Positions 40,920 through 64,000 are shown, counted from the first letter of the stretch. The stretch is 64,000 bases of DNA from Acidobacteriota bacterium (GCA_034667225.1 JAXDKG010000051.1:106657-170656); one strand, 5' to 3'. Numbers and translations are program-made. Notes: generated by a model not told the origin, from the letters alone.

Positions 40920-40974
40920 TTCCAGCCAAGACACCCACAAGGGTCTCTACACCCTGCAGGCGCGTTTAAAAGAC

Positions 40975-41488: not shown

Positions 41489-41566
41489 GCGTCCATTCAG
41501 CAAAGCCTCGCCACAATGACTGCCATAACGAAGTCCTAACGAGGAAAGGATTCTGGAGGTACCACT

Positions 41567-42184: not shown

Positions 42185-43668
42185 TGAACCCGAGAAAACT
42201 GACCGGTCTATCGGTCCTGGCGCTGCTCGTCGCGCTCGCCGGGCCGGCACCTTCTCCCGCGTACAGGATGAACTACAGCTCGACAGGGTGGAAGACCTCA
42301 GGCCCTGAGGTGGCGTGCGGCTATTTCAACGGCTTCGACCACTGGAACACCGGCACCATCACATGGTATCTGAACACTTCGGGAATGACGTCGCAACAGG
42401 CGACGGACAGGTCCAATGCCATCCAGGATGCCCTGGATACCTGGAACGACGCGGGTTTCGATCGCCAACTGGTCTGGGGAGGGACGGCGAGCGGCTCGTT
42501 CATGGGGCGCGACGACAAGAACGTGATGTTGTGGAGCACCCGTGACGAGTGCGACGAGGCTTCCTGCCATGCCATCACGGCCGTCTACATGAAGGGCTAT
42601 CCGGACGCCCCGACGAATGGGAACGTGATCATCGAATCGGACATCCTTTTCAACGCCGACGCGACCCTGGCTTTCGACTGGAGGACCGACGGCACTTCCA
42701 GCCCAGAGTGCTGGGACACCGAGGGGAGCACCGGGCTCATGATCGACACGCAGGGAGTCGCCACCCACGAGCTCGGTCACAGCCTCGGGATCGGTCACAC
42801 CGAGAAACCGAGCCCGCCGGACGTGCTCCTTTCGAACACGGTGCCCACGATGGGTGGCATCGGCTGCACGGAAGAGGCGCAGGATCTCGCCACGGACGAC
42901 CTCAACGCCCTCAACTGCTCCATGACGCGCTACCCGTACGACCCCGATTATGCTGGCGAGCTCGAGGTCGTCAACTGCCGGGAGATCAGCGGCTGGGCCT
43001 TGAACGAGAGCGAAACCTGGCAGAAGAGCTACGTCGAGCTGCTCTTCCCCAACACCAGCACCGTCAAAGCCGTGCTGAATGCGAACTTCTACACCGGAGG
43101 CCCGCACGGCGTCCACTATTTCCGGTACACCCCGAACAACACTTTCTTCACCGGGGTCTGGTACACGGTGGGAGCCCGGTACTCCGGGAACGGCGCGGCC
43201 CTCACCGGATCGCCGAAGCCGATCATCTGCTACGCCCGCATCTTCAAGACCCAGTCGCCCGCGGAGAGCGCCTCGACGGGAGGCGTCTACACGGTGGGCA
43301 CCCGGTTCAGCTCGAACCGGGCCGGTTACATCACGGAGCTCGGCTTCCACCGCGCGGATGGCGAAACCGGGTCCAACACCCTCCGCCTCTGGACCGACGG
43401 CGGCCAGAAGCTCGCCGAAAAGACGGCGACCTGCACCTCCTCAGGCTGGTGCTGGGTCAACATCCCGGACGTGTCGATCACGGCGAACACCTACTACCGG
43501 GTGGCGGTCAACACCAACACCAAGCAATCTAAGACCGGCTGCGGTCTCGGTTCGGGGATCACCAACGATCCCCTGACCGCTCATCACGGCTACTGGATCG
43601 CGGGCGACGACTTTCCCACCGAACAGAGCTGCACGAACTTCTTCGTCGACGTGAGGTTCGACATGTAG
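42184..43668 (+). CDS. secreted metzincin-type zinc metalloprotease (M10/matrixin-like catalytic domain) with ~230-aa C-terminal domain of unknown function
   Basis: signal MNPRKLTGLSVLALLVALAGPAPSPA; zinc motif HELGHSLGIGHT (HExxHxxGxxH); track ORF starts upstream in frame at 41914, but a signal peptide follows ATG 42184. Confidence 0.7.
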   Translation: MNPRKLTGLSVLALLVALAGPAPSPAYRMNYSSTGWKTSGPEVACGYFNGFDHWNTGTITWYLNTSGMTSQQATDRSNAIQDALDTWNDAGFDRQLVWGGTASGSFMGRDDKNVMLWSTRDECDEASCHAITAVYMKGYPDAPTNGNVIIESDILFNADATLAFDWRTDGTSSPECWDTEGSTGLMIDTQGVATHELGHSLGIGHTEKPSPPDVLLSNTVPTMGGIGCTEEAQDLATDDLNALNCSMTRYPYDPDYAGELEVVNCREISGWALNESETWQKSYVELLFPNTSTVKAVLNANFYTGGPHGVHYFRYTPNNTFFTGVWYTVGARYSGNGAALTGSPKPIICYARIFKTQSPAESASTGGVYTVGTRFSSNRAGYITELGFHRADGETGSNTLRLWTDGGQKLAEKTATCTSSGWCWVNIPDVSITANTYYRVAVNTNTKQSKTGCGLGSGITNDPLTAHHGYWIAGDDFPTEQSCTNFFVDVRFDM

Positions 43669-44629: not shown

Positions 44630-45576
44630 ACGTTGCTGCTGCCCTGCAAGCGATCGCCGGCGTGCTTCCTCGCACTCCGGTCCTCCGCTCGGAGGTGCTC
44701 GACAATCTGGCGGGGGCTCGGCTCTGGTTCAAAGCCGAGGGGCTCCAGATCACCGGCTCGTTCAAGGTGCGGGGCGCCTGGAACCGGGTGCGCTCGTTCA
44801 CTCCCGAGGAGCTGACGCCCGGCCTGATCACGGTGAGCGCGGGCAACGCGGCCCTGGGCGCGGCCTGGGCGGCTCGGGCCGCAGGGGCCCGCCTGGTGGT
44901 GGTCATGCCCGAGAATGCCGTGCCCGAGAAGCTCATCGCGGTGGCCGCCATGGGAGCCCGCATCGAAAAGGAAGGAGTCACGAACGCCACGCAGGCATTC
45001 GAGCGGCTCGCCCGGCTCCGCGCCGAGCACGGCTACACCCTGGTCCATCCATTCGACGATCCCTTCGTCATTGCCGGAGCCGCCACGGCCACTTGGGAGC
45101 TGCTCGAAGAGGTCCCGGACCTCGACGCCGTGGTGGTCCCCACCTCCGGCGGCGGGCTCTTCGCCGGGGCGATCCTGGCGGCTCGGACTGCAACGGTTCA
45201 TGGAATCCAGCCCTTCGGAGCCGACGGACTGATCCGCTCGCTGGCGGCGGGGGAGCCGACGCCGCCGGAGCGGGTGCAGACCGTGGCCGACGGCCTGACC
45301 GCTCCCAAACCAGGTGTACTCAACTTCAAGATCATCCGTGAGGCGGTCGAACAGGGAAGGGCGGACACATCGACCGTGAGCGACGAGGCGATCCTCGAAG
45401 CCATGGGGCTGATCATCCGCCACCTGCGGGTAATCGTGGAGCCGGCTGCCGCCGCGGGGCTGGCGGGAGTATTGGCGGGGGTGCTCGTCAACGACCGCTT
45501 CCGGGGGAAGAAGGTCGGCGTGGTGCTCAGCGGCAGCAACGCGGGCATGGAGCGGGTGCGGTCGGTGCTGGCTTAA
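44626..45576 (+). CDS. PLP-dependent threonine/serine dehydratase family enzyme (fold type II)
   Basis: 316 aa; PLP lysine motif TGSFKVRGAWNRV; glycine-rich loop PTSGGGLFAG. Confidence 0.65.
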   Translation: MNVAAALQAIAGVLPRTPVLRSEVLDNLAGARLWFKAEGLQITGSFKVRGAWNRVRSFTPEELTPGLITVSAGNAALGAAWAARAAGARLVVVMPENAVPEKLIAVAAMGARIEKEGVTNATQAFERLARLRAEHGYTLVHPFDDPFVIAGAATATWELLEEVPDLDAVVVPTSGGGLFAGAILAARTATVHGIQPFGADGLIRSLAAGEPTPPERVQTVADGLTAPKPGVLNFKIIREAVEQGRADTSTVSDEAILEAMGLIIRHLRVIVEPAAAAGLAGVLAGVLVNDRFRGKKVGVVLSGSNAGMERVRSVLA

Positions 45577-46322
45577 TGGCTCCGATATTGCCGAGGCACC
45601 GTCCGCAGGAAGCTCGCCCGGTGGACGAGGATGCGGGCGAGCTGGTCGTGCTCCTTGAGCGCTGTGAATATTTCGGCGGACCGGTCGAGCAGGTCTAGGG
45701 CCCGCTGCATCTGGCCGAGGTCTCGGCGCAGGACCGCCTCCAGCAGGTCGATGCGCGCCGCGAGGTCCGGATCGGCCCCGCCGCGCTCCTCGTGCAGCCG
45801 GCTCTCCGCGAAGGCCAGCAGGGCCTGCTCGGGATCGCCTGAGGTGCGGAGCGCCTCCCCCTCCATGGCGAAGGAGTAGGCCTCGAGGTCGGCGAGCGCG
45901 GCCGTGCCGCCGCAGGATCTGGGATCCACCTGTCCGGTCACGGCGCGGGCGAGCCGGGCGAGCCTCTGGCCCTTGTCCGGATCGCGCAGGATCTCCGTCT
46001 CGCAGCGCTTCAGGATGTAGGAGGCCAGGGCGTAGCTGTGGAACCGGCCGTCCAGCGCGAGCGCCGTCTCCCTCTCGATCTCAGGCATGGCGAGGAGCTC
46101 GGCCAGCAGGTCCGGCGCCGCCGCTTTCTCGGCCCGGACCTCCGGAAGCCTGCGGAGCGTGCCCTCGGCTGCCCGGAACAGGGCGGCGCGATAGCCACTG
46201 TCCTCCTCGGCCGCGACCTCCCTGAGGCGCGACCGGCACTCCTCGCACTCCTCCAGATGCTGCATCTCGACCGCAAACCTGCGGGCGAGGGCCCTCGTCT
46301 GCTCCTCGGTCAGGTGTGACAT
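45573..46322 (-). CDS. hypothetical helical protein, short paralogue of 46457-47788 (N-terminal Cys cluster ECEECRSR)
   Basis: 249 aa; shares a ~200-aa core with the next gene (LAELLAMP…RFH.Y.LASY.L.RCE…DPR.CGGTAALADLEAY..AME…RGGADPDL.ARIDLLEA.LRRDL). Confidence 0.5.
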   Translation of the reverse strand: MSHLTEEQTRALARRFAVEMQHLEECEECRSRLREVAAEEDSGYRAALFRAAEGTLRRLPEVRAEKAAAPDLLAELLAMPEIERETALALDGRFHSYALASYILKRCETEILRDPDKGQRLARLARAVTGQVDPRSCGGTAALADLEAYSFAMEGEALRTSGDPEQALLAFAESRLHEERGGADPDLAARIDLLEAVLRRDLGQMQRALDLLDRSAEIFTALKEHDQLARILVHRASFLRTVPRQYRSH

Positions 46323-46456
46323 GGCCGCAATCCCTCCCCGAATCTTAGGTCCTCCTTATATAAGTTGCCGCACGGGCGAAAAAAATGACACCGGCTCGGA
46401 AAGAGCCGGTGTCAGGGATGCTCGAAAGAGGGTCGAGGGGGGCTAGTTCGCCGGAT

Positions 46457-47788
46457 TTAGTTCGCCGGATTACCGCGGACCTGGTTCACACGGACCCGGT
46501 CGGCGGCATGGGCGAGGAGCTTGAAGCTGACCGTCTGCCGCTCGGCGGCCTGTTGCACCGCCTTGAGGGCGGCGAGCGCCTCCGGATGGACGTCCCGGGA
46601 CTGGAACAGACGTACCAGGTCCGAGGCGACACGGAAGACCTCGGCGGTCTCCCCGCGGCGGGCGTAGACCATGACCAGGTCGAGCCCGGCCAGAGCCGCG
46701 TCGTAGGCGTAGCCGTGCTCGGTGAGCCGGTCCATCGCCTGCGTGAGGAGCTCCTCGGCCCGGGCCAGATCCTCGTCCAGCTCCCGCGCGATGAGCCCCT
46801 CCGCCCAGATGCGGCGGCTGACGGTCAGCGGGTCGTTGTACTGGAGGTACAGGTCCTTGGAGGACTCGTAGAGGTCCGCCGCCTCGCGCGCGCTCCCGCA
46901 CTCGGCGAGGGCGAAGATGAGGTTGTGGCGCACCACCAAGGCGAGCCAGGGGTCGTTGGCCAGGGTCAGGGCTTTGCGCAGGTTCTCGATCACCCGGTCC
47001 AGCTCCTTCGTGACCAGGAAGACGTTGGCCCGGTTGATGATCGCCCGTGCCTGCCGGTTGCGGTCGTTGAGGGCCACGAAGCCCCGCTCCGCCCGGTCGA
47101 GGAGCTCGAAGGCGGCGGCGAACTGGCGCAGATCGCGGCGCAGCGAAGCTTCCAATAGGTCGATGCGGGCCGAGAGGTCGGGGTCCGCGCCTCCGCGGTC
47201 CTGCGTGCGGCGCGACAGCAGAAACGTGCTGAACGCCTCCTGCAGGTTGCCTCCCACGCGCGCGGCGTTCGCTTCCATGGCCATGGCATAGGCCTCGAGG
47301 TCGGCCAGGGCCGCGGTGCCGCCGCACTCCCGCGGGTCGGCCTGCTCGGCGACGGTCCGTGCGAGCCGGGCCAGCTCTCCGGCCATCGCCGGATCGTGGA
47401 AGACCACCTTCTCGCAACGTTCCAGAGTGTACGAAGCGAGGGAGTAGGTGTGGAACCGCGCCTGCGAGGCCACGGCCGACTCCCTCTCATGATTGGGCAT
47501 CGCCAGCAACTCGGCGAGTTGGGCGGGGGCCGAGGCCCTCTCCCCCGAGACCTGGGAGGTGCGGCTCAGGACTGTCCTGAGCACCTGGTCCAGGGACTCG
47601 TCGTCTTCGAGGACCGACGACCCGCCGGCGACCTGGGATTCCTCCTCCAGATCTGGCGTGCCTTCTGCCGTGCCTTCCTTCTCCGCATTGAGAGCCCGTG
47701 CGAGAACTCGTGCCAAGGCACCCATCCGCTTGTCCGGCGAACGTTCCATGTCTGTCTCCTCGTGCCGAGTCGCTGCTTTCCCTACCAT
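46457..47788 (-). CDS. hypothetical helical (TPR-like) protein, long paralogue of 45573-46322
   Basis: 443 aa; same conserved core as above plus ~190-aa C-terminal helical extension; acidic N-terminus. Confidence 0.5.
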   Translation of the reverse strand: MVGKAATRHEETDMERSPDKRMGALARVLARALNAEKEGTAEGTPDLEEESQVAGGSSVLEDDESLDQVLRTVLSRTSQVSGERASAPAQLAELLAMPNHERESAVASQARFHTYSLASYTLERCEKVVFHDPAMAGELARLARTVAEQADPRECGGTAALADLEAYAMAMEANAARVGGNLQEAFSTFLLSRRTQDRGGADPDLSARIDLLEASLRRDLRQFAAAFELLDRAERGFVALNDRNRQARAIINRANVFLVTKELDRVIENLRKALTLANDPWLALVVRHNLIFALAECGSAREAADLYESSKDLYLQYNDPLTVSRRIWAEGLIARELDEDLARAEELLTQAMDRLTEHGYAYDAALAGLDLVMVYARRGETAEVFRVASDLVRLFQSRDVHPEALAALKAVQQAAERQTVSFKLLAHAADRVRVNQVRGNPAN

Positions 47789-48742: not shown

Positions 48743-49575
48743 GCGTCCGCTACGGCAGGAGGCTCGTGCTCGACCGGGTCTCGCTGTCGGTGCCGGAGGG
48801 CTCGGTGTACGTCCTCCTCGGCCGCAACGGCGCGGGCAAGAGCTCCCTCGTGCGCTGCCTGCTGGGGGAGCAGCGGCCGGGAGCGGGGAGCGTCCGCCTG
48901 CTGGGCGGAGACGTCTGGAGCGAGCGGGCCGCGCTCCTCCGCGAGGTCGGCGTCGTACCGGAGGAGCCCGACGCGCCGCCCTCGATGAACGCCCGCCAGC
49001 TCGCCCGTTTCTGCTCCGGCCTCTATCCCTCCTGGGACGACGCGGGCTTCGCGGCGCGGCTGGAGCGCTTCGGGGTCCCTCCCGGGCTCCCCTTCGGACA
49101 GCTCTCCAAGGGGCAGAAGGGGCAGGTGACCCTCTCCCTCGCTCTGGCGGGCTCTCCGCGGCTGCTCATCCTGGACGATCCCACCCTGGGCCTCGATCCC
49201 GTCGCCCGCCGCGCGGTTTTCGACGAGCTGATCGTGGACCTCGCCGACCGGGGCACGACGGTTTTCCTCACCAGCCACGACCTGGCGGGAGTCGAGGGGA
49301 TCGCGGACCGGGTCGGCGTCCTGCGCGGCGGCCAGCTCCTGGTGGACGAGGAGATGGACACCCTGAAGCAGCGGTTTCGCCGGCTCCGTCTCCCCGCGGA
49401 AAATGGACACAATCTGGAGGCGCTCGAGCCGGTCTCGGTCACGACCCGCGCCTGGGGCTCGGAGGTGGTGGTCTCCGCCTGGGACGAGTCTTTCGCGAAG
49501 GAGGACGTCGAGGTCTCGGCGATGACGCTGGAGGAGATCTTCCTCTCGCTGGTGGGCCAGGAGGGGGTGAAATGA
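48715..49575 (+). CDS. ABC transporter ATP-binding protein
   Basis: ATG 48715 overlaps the gntR end; Walker A GRNGAGKSS, signature LSKGQKGQ, Walker B LLILDDPT. Confidence 0.85.
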   Translation: MDLVAIEELSVRYGRRLVLDRVSLSVPEGSVYVLLGRNGAGKSSLVRCLLGEQRPGAGSVRLLGGDVWSERAALLREVGVVPEEPDAPPSMNARQLARFCSGLYPSWDDAGFAARLERFGVPPGLPFGQLSKGQKGQVTLSLALAGSPRLLILDDPTLGLDPVARRAVFDELIVDLADRGTTVFLTSHDLAGVEGIADRVGVLRGGQLLVDEEMDTLKQRFRRLRLPAENGHNLEALEPVSVTTRAWGSEVVVSAWDESFAKEDVEVSAMTLEEIFLSLVGQEGVK

Positions 49576-51503
49576 GATCGTTCGGTGCGGTCCTCCGGCG
49601 GGAGCTTGCCGAGCGCTGGCTGCTGGCGCTGGCCGCGGCTCTCCTGGGTCTCATCCCCCTGGCCGTGCCGTTCCTGCCGGTGGAGATTTCCCACTCGCCG
49701 GATGCGCGCTCCGGCACCGCGATCGCCCTGGCCATGATCGTCAGCTACGTCCTGGCCCTGGTGCTCGGGAGCACGGTGCTCGCCCGCGATCTGTCCGAGC
49801 GGCGCCTGGGGTTCTACTTCTCCCGTCCGCTGCCGGGCTGGGCGATCTGGGCGGGCAAGCTCGCTGGCGCCGCTCTCCTCGCCTTCGGCTCCGGGGTGCT
49901 GGTCCTCCTCCCGTCGCTGGCGCTCGGTGACCGCCCGGACCCGTCCGGCTCCTGGGGATGGGGGTTCGGCGGCGCCGCCGATTCCGCGCTGTCCTTCGCC
50001 CTCTGGGCCACGACCGTGCTGGCCCTGCTGCTGGCCGCCAACGCCTTCAGCACGATGGTGCGGTCGCGCTCGCCCTGGCTCCTGCTCGATCTGCTCGCCG
50101 GGACTCTGCTGGCGGGGCTCGTCGCGGTCGCCACGGCGCGCCTGCTCTCCGCCTGGGCGCTCGGCGCCCTGACCATGGCGTATTTCGCTCTGCTCGTCAC
50201 CGTCGTCCTCTGCTTTGCGGCGGCGAGCGCCGTCCAGGTGACGCGGGCCCGCACCGACCCGCGGCGCGGGCATCGGCTCCTCTCCCTCACCCTCTGGACC
50301 CTCCTGGGCTTCTCGGCCCTGGCTTTCGGCGGTTACGCGCAGTGGGTGCTCGCGGCTAGCCCTGAAGACCTGGTGGAGATCGGAGGAGTGGTCCCGGCGC
50401 CGGCGGGGGATTGGATCGCGCTCGGAGGCTCCACGGGGAAGCTACGCGGAGAATTCGAGCCCTTCTTCCTGCTGGACACATCCTCGGGCCGCTCCTTCCG
50501 GCTGCAGGCGCATGCCACGGACTGGGGCGGTTTCGCCTTCTCGAGCGACGGCCGCCACGCCGCCTGGACGGAGATGGCCGGCCGCGGCGCTTCTCAGGTA
50601 ACGATCCACCGGCTGGACCTCGGCCGCCCGGGAGCCGAGCCTGCAGCGACCCCCATCGGCTTCTCGGATCATTTCCCGTACTCCCTCGTCCTCTCCCCGG
50701 ACGGGAGGAGGATGGCCTGCATCATCGACGAGCGCATCGTCGCGCAGGAGATGGGGAACGGGCGGCTGCTTCTGGCAACCCCGATGCCGGCCGGAGAGTC
50801 CTGGGGCGCTGACCGCCTGCGCTTCCTCGACCCGCGGACGCTCCGCTGGTATGGCACCCGGAGGGGCGGCCGTCTCCAGGGAGGGCAGGGCGAGCTCCGG
50901 GCCGTGGACTTCGATCTGGGCACGGGCCGGATCGTCCGCGAGATCCGGTTGCCCGGAAAAGACAAGTCCATCCGGGGGATCAGCCCGGATGGGCAGAGTG
51001 TCCTCCTCAAAAGCCGGGCGCTGGAGCCGACCGGCGAGGAGATCGCCGTCGTGGACCTCCGCACCGGAGAGCCCCCGGTCAACATCCTGATGAAGGGCGT
51101 CCAGAGCGGGCTCTCCTTCCTGCCGGATGGCCGCGTGGTGGTCGCCCGGCGGAACCGGGACCGGATCGAGCTGCGTGTCCTGAACGGCCGCGGCGCGGAG
51201 CTGAAGCGTTTCCTCCTCCCCGGCCGCCGTGTCCGGCTCGGAGGCCAGCCGGCTCCCGGGCTCCTCGCTCTGGTGACCACGCGGGAGCCGTCCGAGAAGA
51301 CGTGGCGGAGCGATCTCCTGGACCTGGAGAGCGGCGCCCTGCGTCCGATCGGTGAAGGAATGTTCCCGCAAAGCTGGCCGAGCCTGCCGCCGGGGAGCAT
51401 CGGGACCCAGCTCTTTGTCCAGGAGAAGGGCGGGCTCGTCCGGATCGATCCCGTGACCGGCCGCCAGCGCGTGATCCTGCACCCCGAAAAAACCAACGGG
51501 TAG
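49572..51503 (+). CDS. ABC-2 type permease fused to a C-terminal beta-propeller-like domain
   Basis: ATG overlaps the ATPase stop (ATGA); ~270 aa with 6 TM helices, then ~370 aa rich in periplasmic propeller-like repeats (TolB/WD40-like); typical GntR-ABC-permease operon. Confidence 0.7.
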   Translation: MRSFGAVLRRELAERWLLALAAALLGLIPLAVPFLPVEISHSPDARSGTAIALAMIVSYVLALVLGSTVLARDLSERRLGFYFSRPLPGWAIWAGKLAGAALLAFGSGVLVLLPSLALGDRPDPSGSWGWGFGGAADSALSFALWATTVLALLLAANAFSTMVRSRSPWLLLDLLAGTLLAGLVAVATARLLSAWALGALTMAYFALLVTVVLCFAAASAVQVTRARTDPRRGHRLLSLTLWTLLGFSALAFGGYAQWVLAASPEDLVEIGGVVPAPAGDWIALGGSTGKLRGEFEPFFLLDTSSGRSFRLQAHATDWGGFAFSSDGRHAAWTEMAGRGASQVTIHRLDLGRPGAEPAATPIGFSDHFPYSLVLSPDGRRMACIIDERIVAQEMGNGRLLLATPMPAGESWGADRLRFLDPRTLRWYGTRRGGRLQGGQGELRAVDFDLGTGRIVREIRLPGKDKSIRGISPDGQSVLLKSRALEPTGEEIAVVDLRTGEPPVNILMKGVQSGLSFLPDGRVVVARRNRDRIELRVLNGRGAELKRFLLPGRRVRLGGQPAPGLLALVTTREPSEKTWRSDLLDLESGALRPIGEGMFPQSWPSLPPGSIGTQLFVQEKGGLVRIDPVTGRQRVILHPEKTNG

Positions 51504-51754
51504 ACCCCTCAAACCACTCGTTTGAGAGAGCTACCCAGTGGGTAGACGCCTCAAACGACTCGTTTGAGCCGCCAACTCAGCCGTTTGAGCCGCCAACCAC
51601 TCGTTTGAGCCGGCAACCCGCTCGTTTGCGCGAGCTACTCAGTGGGTAGACGCCTCAAACGACTCGTTTGAGCCGCCAACTCAGCCGTTTGAGCCGCCAA
51701 TCACTCGTTTGAGCCGGCAACCCGCTCGTTTGCGCGAGCTACCCAGTGGGTACC
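51498..51754. repeat. tandem direct repeat, 104-bp unit x ~2.5, with nested palindromes
   Basis: units begin GAGCTAC(C/T)CAGTGGGTAGACGCCTCAAACGACTCGTTTGAGCC… at 51528, 51632 and 51736 (partial); each unit has palindromes CTACCCA-G-TGGGTAG and CTCAAACG-ACT-CGTTTGAG plus 3 copies of the sub-repeat CTCGTTTGAGCCGCCAA. Confidence 0.8.
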
Positions 51755-51811
51755 AGGCATCTGTAACCAATCTGCCTCTCGCGACTCTGTTCGCTTGGAA
51801 GGAGATTGGTC

Positions 51812-53101
51812 ATGCAACTGAAAAAGAGCATCGGTTTGGGGATCATGGCGCTCGCCGCCGTCGCCTACGGCTCCACTCTGGATTCCACTGCGGAGACCGC
51901 CAAGGCCGATCCAGTCCTGCGTAGCGCCAAGGGGATGATCGAGAGGGGGCGCCAGACCTTCCGCCATGACACGCTGGGAAGCGAGTCTTTCTTCTCCGGG
52001 GCCATCCGGCTCAACGAGGCCATCCAGACCGTCACCCCCCGGACCGCCCTCGCCGTGGGGCTCAAGGTGGATTCCGCGGCCCTGCCGCAGGAGCTGATCC
52101 GCGCCATCAAGAAAGGCAAGGTCGACCTGGACGATCCCGCGACCACGGCGGCCCTGCTCTCCCTCGGCGCGGTGGTCGGCGTTGAGTCGGAAGTGGGGAA
52201 GGATGGATCGATCCGCAACCTGGGGATCACCTGCGGTTTCTGCCACTCCACCGTGGACGATTCGGTGGCGCCGGGGATCGGCCAGCGGCTCGACGGCTGG
52301 GCCAACCGGGACCTCAATGTGGGCGCGATCCTGAACCTGGCGCCCAACCTCCAGCCCGTGGCCGACCTGCTGGGAGTGGACGTGCCCACCGTCAAGACGG
52401 TGCTCCAGAGCTGGGGGCCGGGCCGGTTCGATGCCCATCTGAACCTGGACGGCAAGGCTTTCCGGCCGGACGGCAAGACCGCGGCGGTGCTGATCCCGCC
52501 GGCCTTCGGGCTCGCCGGGGTGAATCTCCACACCTATGAAGGCTGGGGCTCGGTGACCTACTGGAACGCCTTCGTGGGCAACCTGGAGATGAACGGCAAG
52601 GGGACCTTCTTCGATCCCCGCCTCGACGACCCGGTCAAGCACCCGGTGGCCTCCCACAACGGCTTCGCGGACGTCCGCAACGAGCCGGACCTGATCACGC
52701 CGAAGCTGGCCGACCTCCACTTCTACCAGCTCGCCCTCACCGCCCCAGTTCCCCCGGCGGGCAGCTTCGACGAGGGAGGCGCGCGCCGCGGCCGCATCCT
52801 GTTCGCGGGCAAGGCGCAGTGCGGGACCTGCCACGTAGCGCCCCTGTTCACCGAGCCTGGCTGGAATCTTCACAAGCCGGAGGAGATCGGGATCGACGCC
52901 TTCCAGGCAGACCGCGGGCCCGAGGGCCGCTACCGCACCACCCCGCTCAAGGGGCTCTGGACCCACACGAAGGGCGGCTTCTACCACGACGGACGCTTCC
53001 CCACGCTGCTCGACGTCGTGAGCCACTACGATGGATTCCTGAAGCTGGGGCTGTCGCAGGGAGAGAAGGAGGATCTGGTCGAGTACCTGAAGTCGCTCTA
53101 G
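51812..53101 (+). CDS. c-type cytochrome with two CxxCH haem-binding motifs (di-haem cytochrome c peroxidase-like family)
   Basis: GGAGATTGG RBS then ATG 51812; signal peptide; CGFCH and CGTCH motifs. Confidence 0.55.
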   Translation: MQLKKSIGLGIMALAAVAYGSTLDSTAETAKADPVLRSAKGMIERGRQTFRHDTLGSESFFSGAIRLNEAIQTVTPRTALAVGLKVDSAALPQELIRAIKKGKVDLDDPATTAALLSLGAVVGVESEVGKDGSIRNLGITCGFCHSTVDDSVAPGIGQRLDGWANRDLNVGAILNLAPNLQPVADLLGVDVPTVKTVLQSWGPGRFDAHLNLDGKAFRPDGKTAAVLIPPAFGLAGVNLHTYEGWGSVTYWNAFVGNLEMNGKGTFFDPRLDDPVKHPVASHNGFADVRNEPDLITPKLADLHFYQLALTAPVPPAGSFDEGGARRGRILFAGKAQCGTCHVAPLFTEPGWNLHKPEEIGIDAFQADRGPEGRYRTTPLKGLWTHTKGGFYHDGRFPTLLDVVSHYDGFLKLGLSQGEKEDLVEYLKSL

Positions 53102-57297: not shown

Positions 57298-58392
57298 ATG
57301 CGGTTCCCGACGTACCTGAAGCTCGGCTTCGTGCTGGTCCTGCTCCCTGCTACCGCCATGGCGGGCACGGTGAGCCTTTCGAATACGAACAAGAAGGCGG
57401 AGAAGCGCTGGACGGCGGAGCGCTATGCCGCGGCCCGGCCGCTGCCCATGCGGCAGGTCGATTCCGACATCGATCCGTTCCCCGCTGCCCTGGAAGAGAC
57501 GGAGTCGGCCCCCGGGAGCCGTTCCGCGGCGGGCCGGGCGCCGATGGCCGGAGTCCGCGCCGACTCGTCGAACCGGCTGTTCGACGCCCGGGACCGCGAG
57601 CTGGCCTCGATCTTCGGCGAGGACCTCGATTCCATCGCCGAGCCGGCTTCGGGCAGCGGCGGCGGCTATTTCACCAGCTCCCGGCTCGTGCCCGAATCGG
57701 CCGACGAGAGCTATCCCTACTCCACCGTGGGCAAGCTGTTCTTCACCATTCCAGGCCAGGGGGATTTCTACTGCTCGGCGGCCGTGATCCGCAATCGGGT
57801 CATCGCGACCGCGGCGCAGTGCATCCACAGCGGCACCCCCAGCCCGGGCTTCTACGACGACTTCGAGTTCGTCCCGGTCTACCGGGACGGCACGGCGCCC
57901 TTCGGCATCTGGGCCTGGGAGTACGTGACCGTGTCTTCGACCTGGACGAGCGGCAAGGGCAAGCTTCCCCATGCCGCGGATTTCGGGCTGATCGAGCTCG
58001 AGGACCGGGTGGTCAACGGCGCGCTCCACACGATCGGCGACATCGTGGGCTACCTGGGCTATGCGACCCAGCGCCTGCGCCCGAACCACGTGCACATGCT
58101 CGCCTATTCGAGCAGCCATGACGGCGGCGAGATCGTCCACCAGGTGACCGCGAAGGATCACAAGACGGCGAAGCCGACCAACGTCCTGTACGGCTCCGAC
58201 ATGCGCGCAGGCTCGGCCGGCGGACCGCTGATCCAGGATTTCGGCGACGACCCGGACCTGGTGAGGTGGGTCGGCGCACTTTCGACCTTCAACAGCTCGA
58301 CCTCGGTGAAGCTGCAGGGGGCTTCCATCCCGGACACCCGCTTCACGAGCCTGCTCAACGACGTCTGCGCCCATCGGGGCGGGAACTGCTGA
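57298..58392 (+). CDS. secreted trypsin-like (S1 family) serine protease homologue with non-canonical catalytic motifs
   Basis: 364 aa; signal peptide; S1 fold signatures, but ATAAQCIHSG where TAAHC is expected and GSAGGPL where GDSGGP is expected. Confidence 0.6.
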   Translation: MRFPTYLKLGFVLVLLPATAMAGTVSLSNTNKKAEKRWTAERYAAARPLPMRQVDSDIDPFPAALEETESAPGSRSAAGRAPMAGVRADSSNRLFDARDRELASIFGEDLDSIAEPASGSGGGYFTSSRLVPESADESYPYSTVGKLFFTIPGQGDFYCSAAVIRNRVIATAAQCIHSGTPSPGFYDDFEFVPVYRDGTAPFGIWAWEYVTVSSTWTSGKGKLPHAADFGLIELEDRVVNGALHTIGDIVGYLGYATQRLRPNHVHMLAYSSSHDGGEIVHQVTAKDHKTAKPTNVLYGSDMRAGSAGGPLIQDFGDDPDLVRWVGALSTFNSSTSVKLQGASIPDTRFTSLLNDVCAHRGGNC

Positions 58393-58403: not shown

Positions 58404-59339
58404 CTAGCCGATGTCCTGCTTCCGCAGGGATTGATCGATCATCACCGCCGCGATGTTGCCCGTGCCCATGGCCACAGCCACCTGCTGGGTCATGGGCCGG
58501 ATGTCTCCCGCGATCCAGACTCCCGGAACGTTCGTATCCCCTCGTTGCGACTTCGGCTGCACGTGATGGCCGGTCGAGGCCATTTCGATGCCGAGCTGTT
58601 GCGCCAGGTCGGTCCGGCCCACGGCGGGGCTCGAGACGAAGAAGGCTTCGGCATTCAGCGTGCGGCCGTCCTGGAGCTCGAGGCCGGTGAGCATCTTGTC
58701 CTCTCCCACCAAGCGCTGAATTTTTCCGGGGATCACCTCGATCCCTTTCTCTCTCAGTTTCTCAGCGTGGCGTTCGGGCAGGCCGGGCTCGGTCGTGGCG
58801 AGAACGCGCAGGCGGTCGGTGTAGCGCGAGAGGCCCAGCGCCATGCCGGCTGCACTGTCCGTCGAGCCCACTCCGATCACGATCGTGTCCTTGCCCCGCA
58901 CCTCGGGCGCCTCGCAATCCGAGCAGTAGAAAAGGTTTCCTTTGCCTGCGTAGTGGAAGCAGGGGGTGAAGTCGCCGTCCACGAGCGGATGGTAGCGGGC
59001 CACGCCGGTCGCGAGGAGCAGCGTGCGGCCGCGGAAGGTCTCGCCCTTTTCGCCGGTGAGGAGGAAGTCCCCGTCGTGCCCCTCGGCCTTCACGATATTG
59101 GCGCGGCGGACCTCGGCGCCCATCTCCTTGGCCTGTTCCCTCAAGCTCTTCTGGATGTCGATACCGCGCACATGAGGCATGCCGGGCACATTGTGGAGCT
59201 GCTCCAGGGTGAAGAAGAGCGGGCCGCTGACGCGGTCGAGGACCAGCGTCTTGCGGCCGTGCCAGGCGAGGTGGAGAGCCGCCGTGAGCCCGGCCGGCCC
59301 GCCGCCGACGATCAGGGTGTCGTAGATCGTGTCGGTCAT
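58404..59339 (-). CDS. FAD/NAD(P)-dependent oxidoreductase of the thioredoxin-reductase family
   Basis: 311 aa; FAD motif IVGGGPAGLTAA; NAD(P) motif; CSDC redox motif. Confidence 0.7.
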   Translation of the reverse strand: MTDTIYDTLIVGGGPAGLTAALHLAWHGRKTLVLDRVSGPLFFTLEQLHNVPGMPHVRGIDIQKSLREQAKEMGAEVRRANIVKAEGHDGDFLLTGEKGETFRGRTLLLATGVARYHPLVDGDFTPCFHYAGKGNLFYCSDCEAPEVRGKDTIVIGVGSTDSAAGMALGLSRYTDRLRVLATTEPGLPERHAEKLREKGIEVIPGKIQRLVGEDKMLTGLELQDGRTLNAEAFFVSSPAVGRTDLAQQLGIEMASTGHHVQPKSQRGDTNVPGVWIAGDIRPMTQQVAVAMGTGNIAAVMIDQSLRKQDIG

Positions 59340-59350
59340 TTGGACGAAGT

Positions 59351-60283
59351 TTATCGCAGGCCGGATTGGAGCGCTTCAAGCTCCTTCAGGATGGGTTCGA
59401 AGCCGGCGAGGCGTCGATCCCGGTCCTTGACCAGGCAGGCGGCGATCAGGGCGGAGAGCCGGGGATCGTACTCGGGGTTGAGCTCATGGATCGGCCTCGG
59501 ATCCTCTTCCAGGAGCCGGCGGGAGACCTCCGGGAAGCTGGTGGCGGCGAACGGGCGCACGCCGGTGAGCAGCTCGTAGGCCAGGACGCCGAAGGAGAAG
59601 ACGTCCGCCCGGGCGTCCACCTGCTCGCCGCGGAACTGCTCGGGGGAGACGTAGCCGAGCGTGCCGATGGCCACCCCCTTGGTCGTGAGGTTCAAATCCC
59701 GGTCGAGCAGCTTGGCGAAGCCGAAGTCCATGAGCTTGACGGAGCCGTCCGGCAGCACCCGCACGTTGCGCGGCTTGACATCGCGGTGGAGGACGCCCTG
59801 GGAATGGGCGTAGGCCAGCCCGCGGGCGATCTGGAGGAGCACCGCGGTCCGCTCGCGGAGCGTCATCGGGTCCCCCCGCTTGATGAAGGCGCTCAGGTCT
59901 TCGCCTTCGAGCAGCTCCTGGACCAGGTAGGGGAAGTCGCCCTCGGACCCCAGCTCCAGCACCCGGGTGACGTTCGGGTGCTGCAGGGCCGCGGCGATCT
60001 GGGCTTCGAGCAGGAAGCGCCGGCGGAGCTTCGGATTGGTGCTCGTGCAGACCTTGATCGCGACGTCGGCATGCCGCTCGGGGTCCCACCCTCTGTAGAC
60101 CACGGCCACGCCGCCGGTGCCGATCCGCCGGATCAGGTCGTAGCGGCCGACACGGTCGCGGCCTTCGAGGGGATCGGAGAGGCGTTCGCGCAAGGTGCGA
60201 CGAGTGTAACGAATCCCCGGGGCGATTCGCCCGAGAAAGTGCAGGCAAGCGGACGGGCTGCCCTGTAAAGAGAACTGATTCAA
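59351..60283 (-). CDS. serine/threonine protein kinase
   Basis: 310 aa; IGTGGVAVVY…AIK, HRDVKPRNV, DFG, GTLGYVSPE. Confidence 0.85.
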   Translation of the reverse strand: MNQFSLQGSPSACLHFLGRIAPGIRYTRRTLRERLSDPLEGRDRVGRYDLIRRIGTGGVAVVYRGWDPERHADVAIKVCTSTNPKLRRRFLLEAQIAAALQHPNVTRVLELGSEGDFPYLVQELLEGEDLSAFIKRGDPMTLRERTAVLLQIARGLAYAHSQGVLHRDVKPRNVRVLPDGSVKLMDFGFAKLLDRDLNLTTKGVAIGTLGYVSPEQFRGEQVDARADVFSFGVLAYELLTGVRPFAATSFPEVSRRLLEEDPRPIHELNPEYDPRLSALIAACLVKDRDRRLAGFEPILKELEALQSGLR

Positions 60284-60310
60284 CCCCCCTGTCTTGTGAA
60301 AGGAGTCGAC

Positions 60311-60514
60311 ATGCCCGAGCTGAAGAGAAAGGGAGAAGCGGGAGTGCGCGAGCTTCGCCTCGCCCTCGATTCAAGAACCGATTTCAAGGAAGTCGTAGGC
60401 ATTCTGGAGCGGGTTCTGACCATCAAGGACCTGCCCGGCATCAAAGGCTGTGCCCCCTGCCTGTCCGGCCTCGAGAAGCTGGTCATCCAGGACCTCGTCA
60501 CCAACCCACAGTGA
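60311..60514 (+). CDS. candidate RiPP precursor peptide (67 aa) for the adjacent MNIO/DUF692 enzyme
   Basis: AAAGGAG RBS 7 nt before ATG 60311 (track lists GTG 60296); MPELKRKGEAGVRELRLALDSRTDFKEVVGILERVLTIKDLPGIKGCAPCLSGLEKLVIQDLVTNPQ; only 2 Cys, in a GCAPC motif; ends 42 nt before the DUF692 ATG. Confidence 0.5.
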   Translation: MPELKRKGEAGVRELRLALDSRTDFKEVVGILERVLTIKDLPGIKGCAPCLSGLEKLVIQDLVTNPQ

Positions 60515-60555
60515 GCGCAGCCCGTCCGCGCGCCTCAGTCTTTGGAGGAGCAAAC

Positions 60556-61458
60556 ATGGATCGCATCCCATCGCTCGGCATCGGCCTCGCCTACCAGCCC
60601 GCCCTGCGCCCCTACATCGAGGAGAAGCGGGACACGTTCGACTACGTCGAAATCGTCCCCGACCTGTTGTGGACTGACTTGGGAGCCGGCAAGACGCCGC
60701 GCTACGTAGACGACGAGGAGGGGCTCGCGTTCCTCCGCCGCTGGGCGGATGGCCGGCCGGTGATCCCCCATGGAATCGGACTGTCCATCGGCACCGCCCA
60801 CCGCTTCAACCGCGACCATCTGGGCCAGGTGGAGAGGTGGTTCGAACGGTTCGGGTTCCCGTGGCACAGCGATCATCTCGCCTACAACCTTGCAGAGCAT
60901 GGGATCGACGAGATGAACGTCGGAGTGACGATGCCGCTGCCGCGCGACGAGGAGACGCTGGAGTCGCTGGCGCCCCGGATCGCCGAGGTGCAAAGGCGGC
61001 TGCCGGTGCCGTTCCTGCTGGAGAACAACGTCTATTTTTTCGAGATGCCGGGCGAGGAGATGAGCGACGCGCAGTTCCTCAACGCCCTGTGCGCGAGGAC
61101 CGGCTGCGGTCTGCTCCTCGACCTCCACAACGTCTACTGCAACAGCGTCAACCATGCTGCCGACGCCTTCCGGCTCCTCGACGAGCTGGACATGGGCCGC
61201 GTGGTGGAGATCCACGTGGCGGGCGGCATGGAGCACGAGGGCTGGTGGCTCGACGCCCACTGCGGACCGCTGCCCGATCCTGTCTGGTCGCTCCTCGAAT
61301 ACGCCCTGCCGCGCTGCCCGAACCTGGGCGGCGTCACCTTCGAGATGCTCGGCTCCTGGTTCGTGGACATGGGGAGCGAGCGCCTGGAGAGGGAGCTCCT
61401 GAGGTTGCGGGAGCTCTGGCACCGGTACCGTTGCGCGCCGTTGGAGCAGACCGCGTGA
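60556..61458 (+). CDS. DUF692/MNIO family protein (MbnB/TglH-like multinuclear non-haem iron oxidative enzyme)
   Basis: GGAGGAG RBS 5 nt before ATG 60556 (track GTG 60511 would overlap the precursor); N-terminal MDRIPSLGIGLAYQPALRPYIEE…FDYVEIVPD; C-terminal VEIHVAGG…GWWLDAHCGPLPDPVWSLLEYAL; both are hallmark DUF692 patterns. Confidence 0.75.
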   Translation: MDRIPSLGIGLAYQPALRPYIEEKRDTFDYVEIVPDLLWTDLGAGKTPRYVDDEEGLAFLRRWADGRPVIPHGIGLSIGTAHRFNRDHLGQVERWFERFGFPWHSDHLAYNLAEHGIDEMNVGVTMPLPRDEETLESLAPRIAEVQRRLPVPFLLENNVYFFEMPGEEMSDAQFLNALCARTGCGLLLDLHNVYCNSVNHAADAFRLLDELDMGRVVEIHVAGGMEHEGWWLDAHCGPLPDPVWSLLEYALPRCPNLGGVTFEMLGSWFVDMGSERLERELLRLRELWHRYRCAPLEQTA

Positions 61459-62060
61459 GCGCTGCGGTCTTCCAGTCCGCGTTGGCTCGCTTGGTAGTCG
61501 ATCCCGATTTCCGGGACGGCGTTCGCGGGCGCGGGGCCGAGGCCCTTCCCGCAGAGCTGTCGGACCTGGAGCGGGAGCGTCTCCTGGCCGTGGCCGTCGA
61601 TCGCGGACTGGATATCACCCGCACGCTGCACGTCGGTTTCCGTCTGGCCAAGCTCCTGGCGTGGATTCCCCTGACCTGCGCCGTGCTCGGCCGCGAGGTC
61701 CGCATCCGGGAAGTGGGAGAGTTCTGGAAGAGGCGCCTGCCGGTGAGCTTCTACTATCTGGAGGAGGCCGTGGCCTTCTGCGACTACATTCTGGAGCGGG
61801 CGGGGGAGGGGCTCGAAATCCCCTACCTGGAGGAGGTCGCGGCCTATGAGCGCGCTTCGCTGGAGCTGCGTCGAGCGCGGCCGGCGGGCGAGGAGGCTGC
61901 TCCCCAGACGGTGGGGTTCCTGCACGACCCCGAGGCCCTGTTGGGAGCGCTGGCGCGGGGGGAGGAGCTCGGAGGCTTGCCCGAAATGCCGTGCCGGCTG
62001 GTGGGGAGGCGGGTGGAGGATGGGGTGGAGTGGGGCTTTTACAGCCGCCACCAGTCGTAG
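61455..62060 (+). CDS. DUF2063-like partner protein of the MNIO enzyme (MbnC/TglI-like)
   Basis: GTG start overlapping the DUF692 stop (GTGA); 201 aa; N-terminal VFQSALARLVVDPDFRDGV resembles the DUF2063 N-terminal region. Confidence 0.5.
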   Translation: MSAAVFQSALARLVVDPDFRDGVRGRGAEALPAELSDLERERLLAVAVDRGLDITRTLHVGFRLAKLLAWIPLTCAVLGREVRIREVGEFWKRRLPVSFYYLEEAVAFCDYILERAGEGLEIPYLEEVAAYERASLELRRARPAGEEAAPQTVGFLHDPEALLGALARGEELGGLPEMPCRLVGRRVEDGVEWGFYSRHQS

Positions 62061-62521
62061 GCCTGTTGCTCAGGATCCCAGAAGATGTGGAAGGCGTCGC
62101 ACTGGTCGTCGTGGAGGTTGATCCCCGGCTTGGCGGGGGACCCTTCCTCCTCGATCTTCTCCAGGTCGATCGTGGCCTCGCGGGAGCAGAGGGCATCCTG
62201 CGTGCCGTCCCAGGGGAACCCCAGGGTCCAATGCCGGCAGGAGTCCCCGACCGGACCGTGCACGATCCCTACGACGAGCCGGTTGCCCCGGATGCCGGTC
62301 AGGGCGTAATCCTCCGTCCCATCCTGGTTCAGGTCCGCCTCGAGCAGGCTGGCGGGGTCCCACTCCGTATCCGGCTCGCGCTGCCGCAGGACGTCGAGGG
62401 CCGCCATGCCTTTCGCCGGAGGCCGCGGGGGAGTCTCCGGGCCGGAGGGCGGACGCGTGCCGACGCAGCCGAGGAGCCCCGGCAGGGCGAGCGTCAACAG
62501 GATGCGGACCGCGGTCTTCAT
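62039..62521 (-). CDS. lipoprotein of unknown function
   Basis: 160 aa; signal/lipobox LALPGLLGCVGT; 3' end overlaps the DUF2063 gene convergently. Confidence 0.5.
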   Translation of the reverse strand: MKTAVRILLTLALPGLLGCVGTRPPSGPETPPRPPAKGMAALDVLRQREPDTEWDPASLLEADLNQDGTEDYALTGIRGNRLVVGIVHGPVGDSCRHWTLGFPWDGTQDALCSREATIDLEKIEEEGSPAKPGINLHDDQCDAFHIFWDPEQQAYDWWRL

Positions 62522-62533
62522 CGCCGGAGGATC

Positions 62534-63190
62534 TTACTGCCGATCGAAACGCTCGATACGCTCCTGGATCTCACCGGTGATCTTGCGGAGAGAGGCCATG
62601 TCAGTGGTGCTGAGGTGCTCCTTCAGCTCCTCGAAGAGCGGCTCGACCGGCGGCCGGTAGTCGTGCATCAGGGTCGCGATGTCACCTTCGTAGAGCGCGA
62701 CGCGGGCGAAGTTCCCCTGGCGATAGAGGGAGGGAAGGGCGTACAGCTTGAGGAGCAGCAGGCCCTCCACCGTGGCGCAGGGGATCTCCCGTTCGACGAA
62801 ACGCTGGGTCGTGGCGTAGCGCCGCCTGACCTTCTCGAACAGCGGATTGCTGGTCAGGAGGAGGTCGATCTGGAGGCCGTCGAAGGTGCCGCGCGCGAAG
62901 TCGTCGTCCTGTTTATCGATCCGGATCTCGGGCAGCTTCTCCAGGGAGGACAGCGCCATGATGAGGTCGATGTCCTCAGTGTTGCGGCCTTCCACGTACT
63001 TGAGGAGGGCGATGCCTCCGACGAGGAGGTAGTCGGTCCGCCGTTCCCCGAGGAGGATGAAGAGACGGCTCACCGCCTTCAGCAGATCGTCGCCTTGCAC
63101 GGCACCTCCGCGCTTGCTTCCGAAGTTGAAGAGGACCGCGTTGCGGACGACCTTGCCGATATGGACTTCCCGGGTCTCAGCGGTTCTCAT
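62534..63190 (-). CDS. nucleotidyltransferase-fold protein (minimal pol-beta-type NTase, AbiEii-like)
   Basis: 218 aa; LLVGGIALLKYVEGRNTEDIDLIM = hG[GS]…[DE]h[DE]h NTase motif. Confidence 0.45.
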   Translation of the reverse strand: MRTAETREVHIGKVVRNAVLFNFGSKRGGAVQGDDLLKAVSRLFILLGERRTDYLLVGGIALLKYVEGRNTEDIDLIMALSSLEKLPEIRIDKQDDDFARGTFDGLQIDLLLTSNPLFEKVRRRYATTQRFVEREIPCATVEGLLLLKLYALPSLYRQGNFARVALYEGDIATLMHDYRPPVEPLFEELKEHLSTTDMASLRKITGEIQERIERFDRQ

Positions 63191-63639
63191 GACACTTCGA
63201 TCTTATCCTCCATCCCCTCGAATTGCCGGATCTCCTCCTTCAGGCTCTCCGGTAAGGGGATGGACCGGCCGGTTCCGTAGTCGACCCAGACGATGACGCC
63301 GTGGCCGTCGGCCACCCGCTGGCCGAGGGTTTCGGTGCCGCGGTAGACGATCTCGTAGTCCATCCGAAAGCTGCTCCGTCCGATCTCGGAGACCCGGGCG
63401 AGGACTTCGAGCTCGGCGGGATAGCGCACCTGCTGGCGGAAGTTGAGGTGTGCGGCGGCGAGCGCCGGACCGTGCTTCTCCCCCTGCCGGTGGTCGTACA
63501 TGTGCACCGCCGCGAAGTAGCTCATCCGGGCCGACTCGCAGTAGGTGAAGTACTTGGCGTTGTTGACGTGCCCCATGGAGTCCATGTCCCCCCAGCGCAC
63601 CGAGATCGGCTCCACGTGTCCTCTGTGCTCCTCGCTCAT
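63187..63639 (-). CDS. acyl-CoA thioesterase, hotdog fold (YbgC/4HBT family)
   Basis: 150 aa; VRWGDMDSMGHVNNAKYFTYCESAR is the 4HBT catalytic-region pattern; ATGA overlaps at both ends. Confidence 0.75.
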   Translation of the reverse strand: MSEEHRGHVEPISVRWGDMDSMGHVNNAKYFTYCESARMSYFAAVHMYDHRQGEKHGPALAAAHLNFRQQVRYPAELEVLARVSEIGRSSFRMDYEIVYRGTETLGQRVADGHGVIVWVDYGTGRSIPLPESLKEEIRQFEGMEDKIEVS

Positions 63640-63971
63640 CGATCCTCCACCAGTTCCAGGAGCCGCTCCGGCGGCCGGCCGACCACGGCCCTGTCTCCAA
63701 GCACTCCGATAGGGGGCTGAAGCAGGGTCGGGTGGCGCGCCATGGCGGCGATCAGCTCCTTGTCCGGCTCTTCACCGGTGAAGCCCAGGTCGTTCTTCCG
63801 CAGCACGTCGCGCGGGCGGAGGCCCAGCTTGCGCAGCACCTCGCGGATCTCCTTCTCGGACAGCGGCTCCCGGTTGTACTCCCGGTAGCGGTACTCGATT
63901 CCCTTCCCGTCCAGCAAGGCGACCGCCTTGCGGCAGGTGCTTCAGGTCGCGGCGCAGATCAGCTCGATCAT
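63636..63971 (-). CDS. ArsC/Spx (YffB)-family thioredoxin-fold protein with in-frame TGA (candidate selenocysteine, UxxC)
   Basis: ATG at 63971 (complement): MIELICAAT-[TGA 63944-63942]-STCRKAVALLDGKGIEYRYREYNREPLSEKEIREVL…; family consensus …LY…C..CRKA…; the track ORF starts only at the TTG after the TGA. Confidence 0.55.
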
Positions 63972-64000
63972 GGGCCCGATTCTATGCCGAGCGGGGCGGC

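Follow-up and report, generated by a model that had tools for sequence, protein, structure and literature searches.

An ArsC-family gene with an in-frame UGA codon and a SECIS-type hairpin in an acidobacterium, probably encoding a selenoprotein of a known family

Organization of the locus

We analysed a 64,000-nucleotide stretch of DNA from an Acidobacteriota bacterium (GCA_034667225.1, JAXDKG010000051.1:106657-170656), hereafter called the window. Near its end lies a short minus-strand gene of the ArsC family that carries an in-frame TGA. The sequence beyond the window was read from a second assembly, L080 (the Logan assembly of SRR24887413), which agrees with the window at every position of a 10,365-nt stretch and runs 2.2 kb past its end. 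The genes and features considered here, in the direction of transcription, are the following:

63968..64000, minus strand: 3' end of a CAT-family gene for a 214-aa protein, most of which lies outside the window (PF00302, 88 bits; gene 1561-2205 of L080)
63636..63971, minus strand: CDS of the probable ArsC-family selenoprotein, 111 codons from the ATG at 63971-63969 to the stop TGA at 63638-63636, by translation
63954..63956, minus strand: codon of Cys6, at the position of His8 in the ArsC motif HX3CX3R; Cys in 74 of 74 TGA genes, as TGC or TGT
63942..63944, minus strand: in-frame UGA, residue 10 (probable Sec), directly after MIELICAAT
63906..63937, minus strand: extended lower stem (CCUGCC / GG.CGGG, two bulges) in the minimum-free-energy structure of the window sequence only
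63933..63935, minus strand: codon of Cys13, second residue of UxxC and presumed resolving Cys; Cys in 74 of 74 TGA genes (TGC 39, TGT 35)
63914..63931, minus strand: SECIS-type hairpin found by folding, 7-bp stem GCAAGGC/GCCUUGC, GGUC loop at 63924-63921, 10 nt after the UGA
63915..63917, minus strand: TTG, Leu19, within the 3' arm of the hairpin; false start of gene callers
63714..63716, minus strand: CCC codon of Pro86, aligned with the active-site Arg94 of ArsC
63187..63639, minus strand: 4HBT_2 thioesterase-superfamily gene (PF13279, 98.7 bits), its ATG overlapping the selenoprotein stop (ATGA)
62534..63190, minus strand: gene for a 218-aa protein with a weak AbiEii-like match under the cutoff; 4-nt overlap with the thioesterase gene
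62039..62521, minus strand: gene for a 160-aa protein that belongs to no Pfam family and whose N-terminus is lipoprotein-like, after a 12-nt gap

Direct reading of the minus strand bore out the original prediction as to the frame. An ATG at 63971 opens MIELICAAT, the TGA follows at 63944-63942, and the same frame then continues as STCRKAVALLDGKGIEYRY... up to the TGA stop at 63638-63636. In translation, the UxxC motif of the window protein reads U10-S-T-C13. The ORF listing gives, as had been noted, only the part that follows the TGA (63636-63917, 93 aa, TTG start). TGA is the commonest stop in the window, ending 25 of its 56 genes, the selenoprotein gene and the gene upstream of it among them, which excludes a reassignment of the codon. 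Ten other candidates for an in-frame TGA were found in the window; each is tiny, or is placed within a well-supported gene or opposite to one on the other strand, and none is credible.

The gene had been placed at the head of a four-gene operon with 4-nt overlaps. The ATGA overlaps at 63639/63636 and 63190/63187 are present, whereas the fourth gene follows after the gap, and the leading position was refuted by the CAT-family gene that L080 places upstream. The selenoprotein ATG and the stop TGA of that gene (63970-63968) overlap, again as ATGA. The selenoprotein gene is, therefore, the second of the operon; it is probably translationally coupled to the first, which fits the missing Shine-Dalgarno sequence in front of it.

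A GGUC-looped hairpin downstream of the UGA codon

Folding recovered the perfect 7-bp stem that the original prediction had drawn (GCAAGGC-GGUC-GCCUUGC), with two small corrections: the hairpin spans 63931-63914, ending at 63914 instead of 63913, and the spacer between the UGA and the first paired base is 10 nt long, not 11. Counted from the U of the UGA, the loop starts at nt 21. Bacterial SECIS elements have been described as a stable stem-loop immediately downstream of the UGA with an apical loop that is small and includes a G (PMC1088965), and the hairpin has each of these properties, with its 7-bp stem and its GGUC loop 10 nt past the codon.

The loop had also been likened to that of the Escherichia coli fdhF SECIS element, and reading fdhF from E. 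coli K-12 confirmed the GGUC. There, the UGA is codon 140 and is followed, after 11 nt, by GGUUGCA-GGUC-UGCACC. The two hairpins share the identical apical loop and a short, G+C-rich stem within the coding sequence. They differ in that the fdhF loop starts at nt 22 from the U of the UGA, against nt 21 here, and in that the fdhF stem has a bulged U, whereas the stem in the window is a perfect 7 bp. The fdhF hairpin is known to bind SelB; the window hairpin resembles it in sequence and fold.

The folding energy of the 61-nt region is unremarkable (z = -1.34; 21 of 200 shuffled sequences fold as well). Perfect hairpins with a 7-bp stem and a 4-nt loop number 17 per strand in the window, and a GGUC loop is found in that of the selenoprotein gene alone. 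No Rfam family matches the hairpin, either in the whole window at gathering thresholds or between 63800 and 64000 at E <= 10; since no curated Rfam model fits such an element, this null result is no evidence against a SECIS. The weight of the evidence lies in the comparison of relatives and not in the single sequence.

Conservation of the UGA codon and of the hairpin

We scanned genomes for homologous loci, taking one genome per species, and analysed the best 79 loci of 214 relatives. They represent the Acidobacteriota (Thermoanaerobaculia, Holophagales and others), the Gemmatimonadota, the Myxococcota (Polyangiaceae and Nannocystaceae) and, in one case, the Calditrichaceae. In these best 79 species-level genomes, the codon aligned with the in-frame TGA is TGA in 73 and TGC in six. 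Codon, loop and stem counts were made on a set of 74 TGA genes. The original prediction had taken relatives with a stop at this position and a restart downstream as a sign against a selenoprotein. This expectation was misconceived: relatives do share the stop, and their carrying the same TGA is evidence for recoding, not against it.

A search of protein databases returned 584 relatives, of which the best 120 clusters comprise 27 full-length proteins (109-130 aa) and 93 proteins of 82-99 aa. The short ones start at the Leu that follows the hairpin. All 17 full-length homologues that were aligned have Cys at the TGA position, within MIELIC..TC.TCRKAVALL, and Cys homologues of 109-125 aa align with the window protein over its complete length. 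Together with the alignment of the same position with Cys12 of E. coli ArsC, this upholds the proposed correspondence between the UGA and the nucleophilic Cys.

The protein is conserved in a single frame on both sides of the UGA, as M[IL][ED]LIC..T upstream and.TCRKAVALL downstream, with synonymous variation outside the hairpin. Across the nine codons 5' of the UGA, the amino acids of the 74 TGA genes are conserved while synonymous sites vary: Leu at -6 is written with four codons, Cys at -4 with TGC in 61 genes and TGT in 13, and Thr at -1 with three codons. A start codon stands at -9 in 69 of 73 TGA loci, and many of these loci have a strong Shine-Dalgarno sequence in front of it (AAGGAG or GGAGG, for example). 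The conservation, the start codon and the Shine-Dalgarno motifs indicate that the stretch before the UGA is translated, in frame with the downstream part.

The codons of the hairpin behave differently. Those from +4 to +9 are nearly frozen, with CGC in 71 of 71 genes, AAG in 70 of 71, GCG and GTC each in 74 of 74, GCC in 72 of 74 and TTG in 71 of 74. Their synonymous entropy is 0-0.24 bits, compared with 0.4-1.4 bits at equally invariant residues elsewhere. TTG makes up 5% of the Leu codons in the window, yet it is the codon used at Leu19 in those 71 genes, where it is fixed because it forms part of the 3' arm of the hairpin. Each of the 74 TGA genes has the GGUC loop, and in 72 the stem is completely paired. 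An RNAalifold consensus of the 74 sequences recovered the same seven pairs, two of which show compensatory double changes: the stem is GCAGGGC/GCCCUGC in L027 and L076 and GCAAAGC/GCUUUGC in L062, that is, an AU pair was replaced by GC twice and a GC pair by AU once. A conserved lower stem was considered and rejected. The relatives have no common register for it, with 18-36 of 71 sequences unpaired at three of its four pairs and five of 71 at the fourth, so that a functional role for the extended lower stem of the window sequence is doubtful.

For comparison, we assembled 12 Cys-form genes, six genomic and six metagenomic. The hairpin is kept in five of them and has been lost in seven through synonymous changes, whereas among TGA genes it is intact in 72 and imperfect in two (Fisher p = 4.7e-6). 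Constraint at the nucleotide level on the hairpin codons is, thus, present only when the codon is TGA. Among the hairpin-keeping Cys forms, L002, L084, L085 and L086 share 73-89% identity with the window protein, and L088 is a more distant relative. Nine of the 12 Cys-form genes have a TGA form as their closest relative in the set, which indicates repeated switching between Sec and Cys. The relic hairpins suggest that several of these switches may have gone from Sec to Cys.

Protein family and active site

With Cys put in place of the internal stop, the protein matches PF03960 (ArsC) at 42.6 bits against a cutoff of 24, in agreement with the predicted ArsC-family assignment. Its best NCBIfam match, TIGR00014 (arsC), stays under the cutoff (70.6 versus 106.05 bits), as do the Spx models TIGR01617 (35.6 versus 75) and NF002459 (31.8 versus 123). 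In profile searches, the nearest solved structures are the ArsC/YfgD-type proteins 3f0i and 3rdw (E of about 1e-21), followed by Spx (2e-16) and YffB (2e-8). At E = 1e-21, the hits against solved structures of ArsC fix the fold.

The alignment with E. coli ArsC (31% identity, E = 5e-12) pairs Sec10 with the nucleophile Cys12, Arg14 with Arg16, Cys6 with His8, Arg58 with Arg60, Arg99 with Arg107 and position 86 with Arg94. The reported catalytic features of ArsC are the HX3CX3R motif and the triad Arg60/94/107, the latter missing from YffB (PMC3169414). In the window protein, the corresponding residues read C6-x3-U10-x3-R14: the nucleophile and the Arg are kept and the His is replaced by Cys. 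Taken with the extra Cys, the active site reads C6-x3-U10-x2-C13-R14, in which Sec takes the place of the nucleophilic Cys12. The triad R58/R86/R99 is kept by the family. As judged from these alignments, the family would combine an ArsC-type oxyanion site with an added UxxC pair.

Compared with E. coli ArsC, an R773-type, glutaredoxin-coupled enzyme, the window protein belongs to the same PF03960 fold family and has an aligned nucleophile and aligned arginines. It is shorter, however (111 versus 141 aa), lacking the C-terminal beta-hairpin extension, and it has Cys for His8, an extra Cys at +3 and Pro86 for Arg94. Spx and MgsR are of the same superfamily and carry a CxxC-type motif at the corresponding place, but the window protein is shorter than these proteins and falls far under the Spx model cutoffs. 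That the arginine triad of ArsC is kept in the family points to an enzyme and not to an RNA-polymerase-binding regulator such as Spx or MgsR.

The triad is incomplete in the window copy itself, which has Pro86 at the Arg94 position. This residue is Arg in all 84 homologous loci parsed, Pro being found in the window copy only, and Arg94 of E. coli ArsC is one of three arginines reported to be essential (PMC3169414). Pro86 may cripple oxyanion binding. The recoding signals could, then, be intact in a copy that is enzymatically impaired or a decaying allele. We consider this unlikely: apart from Pro86, the window copy has an intact frame, start, UGA and hairpin and all of the conserved residues, and the replacement is a single-nucleotide change, CGC to CCC. 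The CCC codon is found in both of the identical assemblies, the window and L080, which may share one source population. An impaired allele would concern activity and is compatible with the decoding of the UGA as selenocysteine; the two can be true together.

Decoding of the UGA codon

The gene very probably encodes a 111-residue, ArsC-family protein with a thioredoxin fold, in which codon 10, a UGA, is translated as selenocysteine. The original prediction of a candidate selenoprotein is, thus, strengthened by the conservation of the TGA, of the coding sequence upstream of it and of the hairpin in 73 other genomes. The recoding signals and their conservation are direct observations.

The same UGA and hairpin could, in principle, be read by a suppressor that resembles tRNA-Sec, for example a tRNA-Cys of the SelC* type or an allo-tRNA of Acidobacteria, and so be recoded as Cys or as another residue. 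In some anaerobes, a tRNA-Cys that mimics tRNA-Sec may read UGA, and the allo-tRNAs of Acidobacteria may be nonsense suppressors (Mukai et al., PMC5389517). Yet the groups in which selC* was reported are Firmicutes, Thermodesulfobacteria, Nitrospirae and Proteobacteria, Acidobacteria not being among them (PMC5389517), and no suppressor of the SelC* or allo-tRNA type was found in the window. A plain TGC would, moreover, suffice for Cys, and 92% of the species nonetheless retain a costly TGA together with a frozen hairpin. We, therefore, regard a suppressor as highly improbable.

A split gene or pseudogene, in which the UGA ends a nine-codon remnant and a 93-residue protein starts at the TTG at 63917, is what current annotation amounts to, given that gene callers report the ORF 63636-63917 and that proteins of such length prevail among the best database clusters. 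It is scarcely credible. The truncated product would be devoid of the entire C-x3-U-x2-C-R active site; the amino acids encoded between the UGA and the TTG do not vary; purifying selection acts on the nine codons upstream, which are preceded by Shine-Dalgarno motifs; and the same "break" is found in 73 species of four phyla. That a TGC or TGT was turned into TGA by a mistake in sequencing or assembly, as might be thought from the close homologues with TGC (P0001-P0004 and L002, 87-89% identity), has a negligible chance of being true, the TGA being included in the stretch shared with L080 and found again in the 73 other genomes, which come from unrelated projects.

Under selenocysteine decoding, translation would start at the ATG at 63971, coupled to the stop of the CAT-like gene through the ATGA overlap. 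By analogy with fdhF, we infer that the GGUC-looped hairpin, 10 nt past the UGA, binds SelB carrying Sec-tRNA(Sec); SelB would then deliver Sec-tRNA(Sec) to the ribosome paused at the UGA, where selenium would enter the protein.

Genes of the selenocysteine machinery were searched for around the gene. ARAGORN found no tRNA-Sec in the window and 60 related loci, none of 50 window ORFs scanned with Pfam matched SelA, SelB or SelD, and the E. coli SelA, SelB and SelD proteins had no tblastn match in the window and 80 loci (1.3 Mb). The Sec genes are, thus, not linked to the selenoprotein gene, which says nothing about the remaining genome. Acidobacteria have been recorded as having selenoproteins (PMC1794560); the main text of a 2016 survey in ISME J (PMC5029168) makes no mention of Acidobacteria, Gemmatimonadetes or ArsC. 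The conservation of the gene would imply that its Thermoanaerobaculia-like host and many Acidobacteriota, Gemmatimonadota and Myxococcota run a Sec machinery and prefer Sec over Cys at this site.

Likely chemistry and gene neighbourhood

From the active site, we infer a selenol-based reductase. The selenolate of Sec10 would attack an oxyanion or a disulfide substrate, with arsenate as the leading candidate; Cys13 would resolve the adduct as a selenenylsulfide, and a thioredoxin or glutaredoxin system would reduce the enzyme again. The assignment of arsenate is weak, and our confidence in it is much lower than in Sec recoding, because the TIGR00014 score is under its cutoff, no neighbour family is common among the loci and a Cys stands at the His8 position.

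The gene neighbourhood was examined as a clue to function and discarded, as it is not conserved beyond the closest relatives. The adjacency of the selenoprotein and thioesterase genes is kept only in these (L001-L004 and L007). No neighbour family occurs in more than six of the 79 loci within 4 kb on either side, in a survey by recurrence of neighbour clusters rather than by gene name (arsR, arsB or acr3).

Relation to known selenoprotein groups

ArsC-family selenoproteins have been catalogued before. Those with a UxxS motif were described in the Sargasso Sea study (PMC1088965), ArsC-like selenoproteins were listed in a 2006 survey (PMC1794560), and the GOS study distinguished the groups "Arsenate reductase 1 (UxxS)" and "Arsenate reductase 2 (UxxC)" (Zhang & Gladyshev 2008, PMC2398784). 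A 2022 review lists an "Arsenate reductase-like protein, COG1393, UxxC" (PMC9312934). The window gene is, thus, an addition to a selenoprotein family known since 2005-2008 and opens no new question.

Two UxxC members in Dataset S3 of the GOS study, JCVI_READ_1093018614276 and JCVI_READ_2161197, belong to the subfamily of the window gene. They have LIC..TU.TCRKAVALL...HPTLLQRPIG in common with it and agree with it in the Sec position and in the UxxC motif; the first shares 61% identity with the window protein along its complete length (E = 5e-46). The majority of the GOS UxxC group (MGNKVDWGYFRNSU...), by contrast, forms another subfamily, with 28% identity over 93 residues, and the GOS sequences are ocean reads, whereas the source of the window gene is a Thermoanaerobaculia-like acidobacterium of high GC content. 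The best matches outside the subfamily are "Arsenate reductase 1 (UxxS)" and the glutaredoxin-type ArsC clade (TIGR00014, 3f0i and 3rdw). One GOS UxxS member matches the window protein at 32% identity (E = 1e-20). These proteins have Sec or Cys at the same position and a C-terminal half (...RPI...GRPPE...) in common with it, but their active site is H-x3-U/C-x2-S-R, compared with C-x3-U-x2-C-R in the window protein.

It is possible, though on balance doubtful, that the LIC..TU.TCRKAVALL subfamily is a distinct selenoenzyme, Sec-obligate in practice, that was lumped with an unrelated UxxC group in 2008. If so, it would be a family of its own, never characterised, with a three-residue C-x3-U-x2-C centre on an ArsC scaffold and a full arginine triad. 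It would span Acidobacteriota, Gemmatimonadota and Myxococcota, with Sec in 92% of species and an fdhF-like SECIS that is nucleotide-identical across phyla. Such an enzyme could mark the use of Sec in the major phyla of soil, and the oxyanion reduction that it might catalyse would be selenium-dependent and unlike that of classical ArsC.

For annotation, the consequence is that the true product would be a protein of 111 residues with a Sec active site, and not a 93-residue fragment. The same truncation affects most relatives (93 of the best 120 database clusters), and the false start at which they begin is the TTG frozen by the hairpin.

Cysteine-containing relatives and probable leftover hairpins

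The GGUC-looped hairpin that follows the UGA codon of the selenoprotein gene is not confined to Sec-encoding forms. Five of the 12 homologous genes compared that carry a Cys codon at position 10 (at loci L002, L084, L085, L086 and L088) keep the hairpin with all seven stem pairs. It is nucleotide-identical to the Sec-form hairpin in the first four and contains one G-U pair in L088. The hairpin is gone from the seven other Cys-form genes, mostly more distant relatives. The five retained hairpins look like relic SECIS elements, which suggests that Sec was replaced by Cys recently in the forms still bearing them.

Database annotation and published relatives

The 3' arm of the hairpin also holds fixed a rare TTG codon (63915-63917, minus strand), which is the start chosen by gene callers. 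In the database search, 93 of the 120 best clusters of this family were truncations of 82-99 aa, because gene callers start at this hairpin-frozen TTG. The truncated entries are labelled 'arsenate reductase' in their sources, with Sec nowhere indicated.

The published group 'Arsenate reductase 2 UxxC' (PMC2398784, Dataset S3) is heterogeneous. Two of its sequences belong to the same subfamily as the window protein, one characterised by an ArsC-type arginine triad, whereas the majority represent another subfamily (MGNKVDWGYFRNSU...), only 28% identical.

Within the window protein, codon 86 (63714-63716, minus strand) is CCC and encodes Pro, at a position occupied by Arg (QRPIG) in each of the 84 homologues parsed. 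Its counterpart in the alignment with E. coli ArsC is Arg94, an essential residue. L080, an independent Logan assembly of SRR24887413 that extends past the window end, shares this base. Pro86 could mark an impaired allele, or it could be a substitution specific to the strain.

Genomic neighbourhood

Genes and ORFs near the selenoprotein gene:
L080 1561-2205 (past the window end; last codons at window 63968-64000): CAT-family (chloramphenicol acetyltransferase-like) gene
60511-61458, plus strand: MbnB/TglH/ChrH (DUF692) RiPP-modifying family gene (PF05114, 200 bits)
60296-60514, plus strand: small ORF with the motif GCAPC, preceding the DUF692-family gene

The CAT-family gene lies 5' of the selenoprotein gene, and its end overlaps the selenoprotein start as ATGA. 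This pairing was found only in the window/L080 locus and in the homologous locus L001. Upstream of the CAT-family gene, at L080 1443-1472, there is a weak sigma-70-like site.

The region 60296-62060 (plus strand), where the 201-aa ORF after the DUF692-family gene had no Pfam match, may be a peptide-modification cluster. On the minus strand (58404-60283), a pyridine nucleotide-disulphide oxidoreductase of 311 aa, the size of a thioredoxin reductase, adjoins a Ser/Thr protein kinase, the pair being ~3.4 kb away from the selenoprotein gene. The oxidoreductase could supply reductant, but no linkage was seen in other loci.

Elsewhere in the window, several long ORFs (249-443 aa) with strong coding signal, at 45573-47788, 49023-53101 and 57298-58392, matched no Pfam family at E <= 1e-4. 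A stretch of ~600 bp without ORFs (about 40900-41500), with no Rfam match, has a G+C content of 45-49% vs 67% for the window and lies upstream of a Peptidase_M10/DUF4082 gene (41914-43668).
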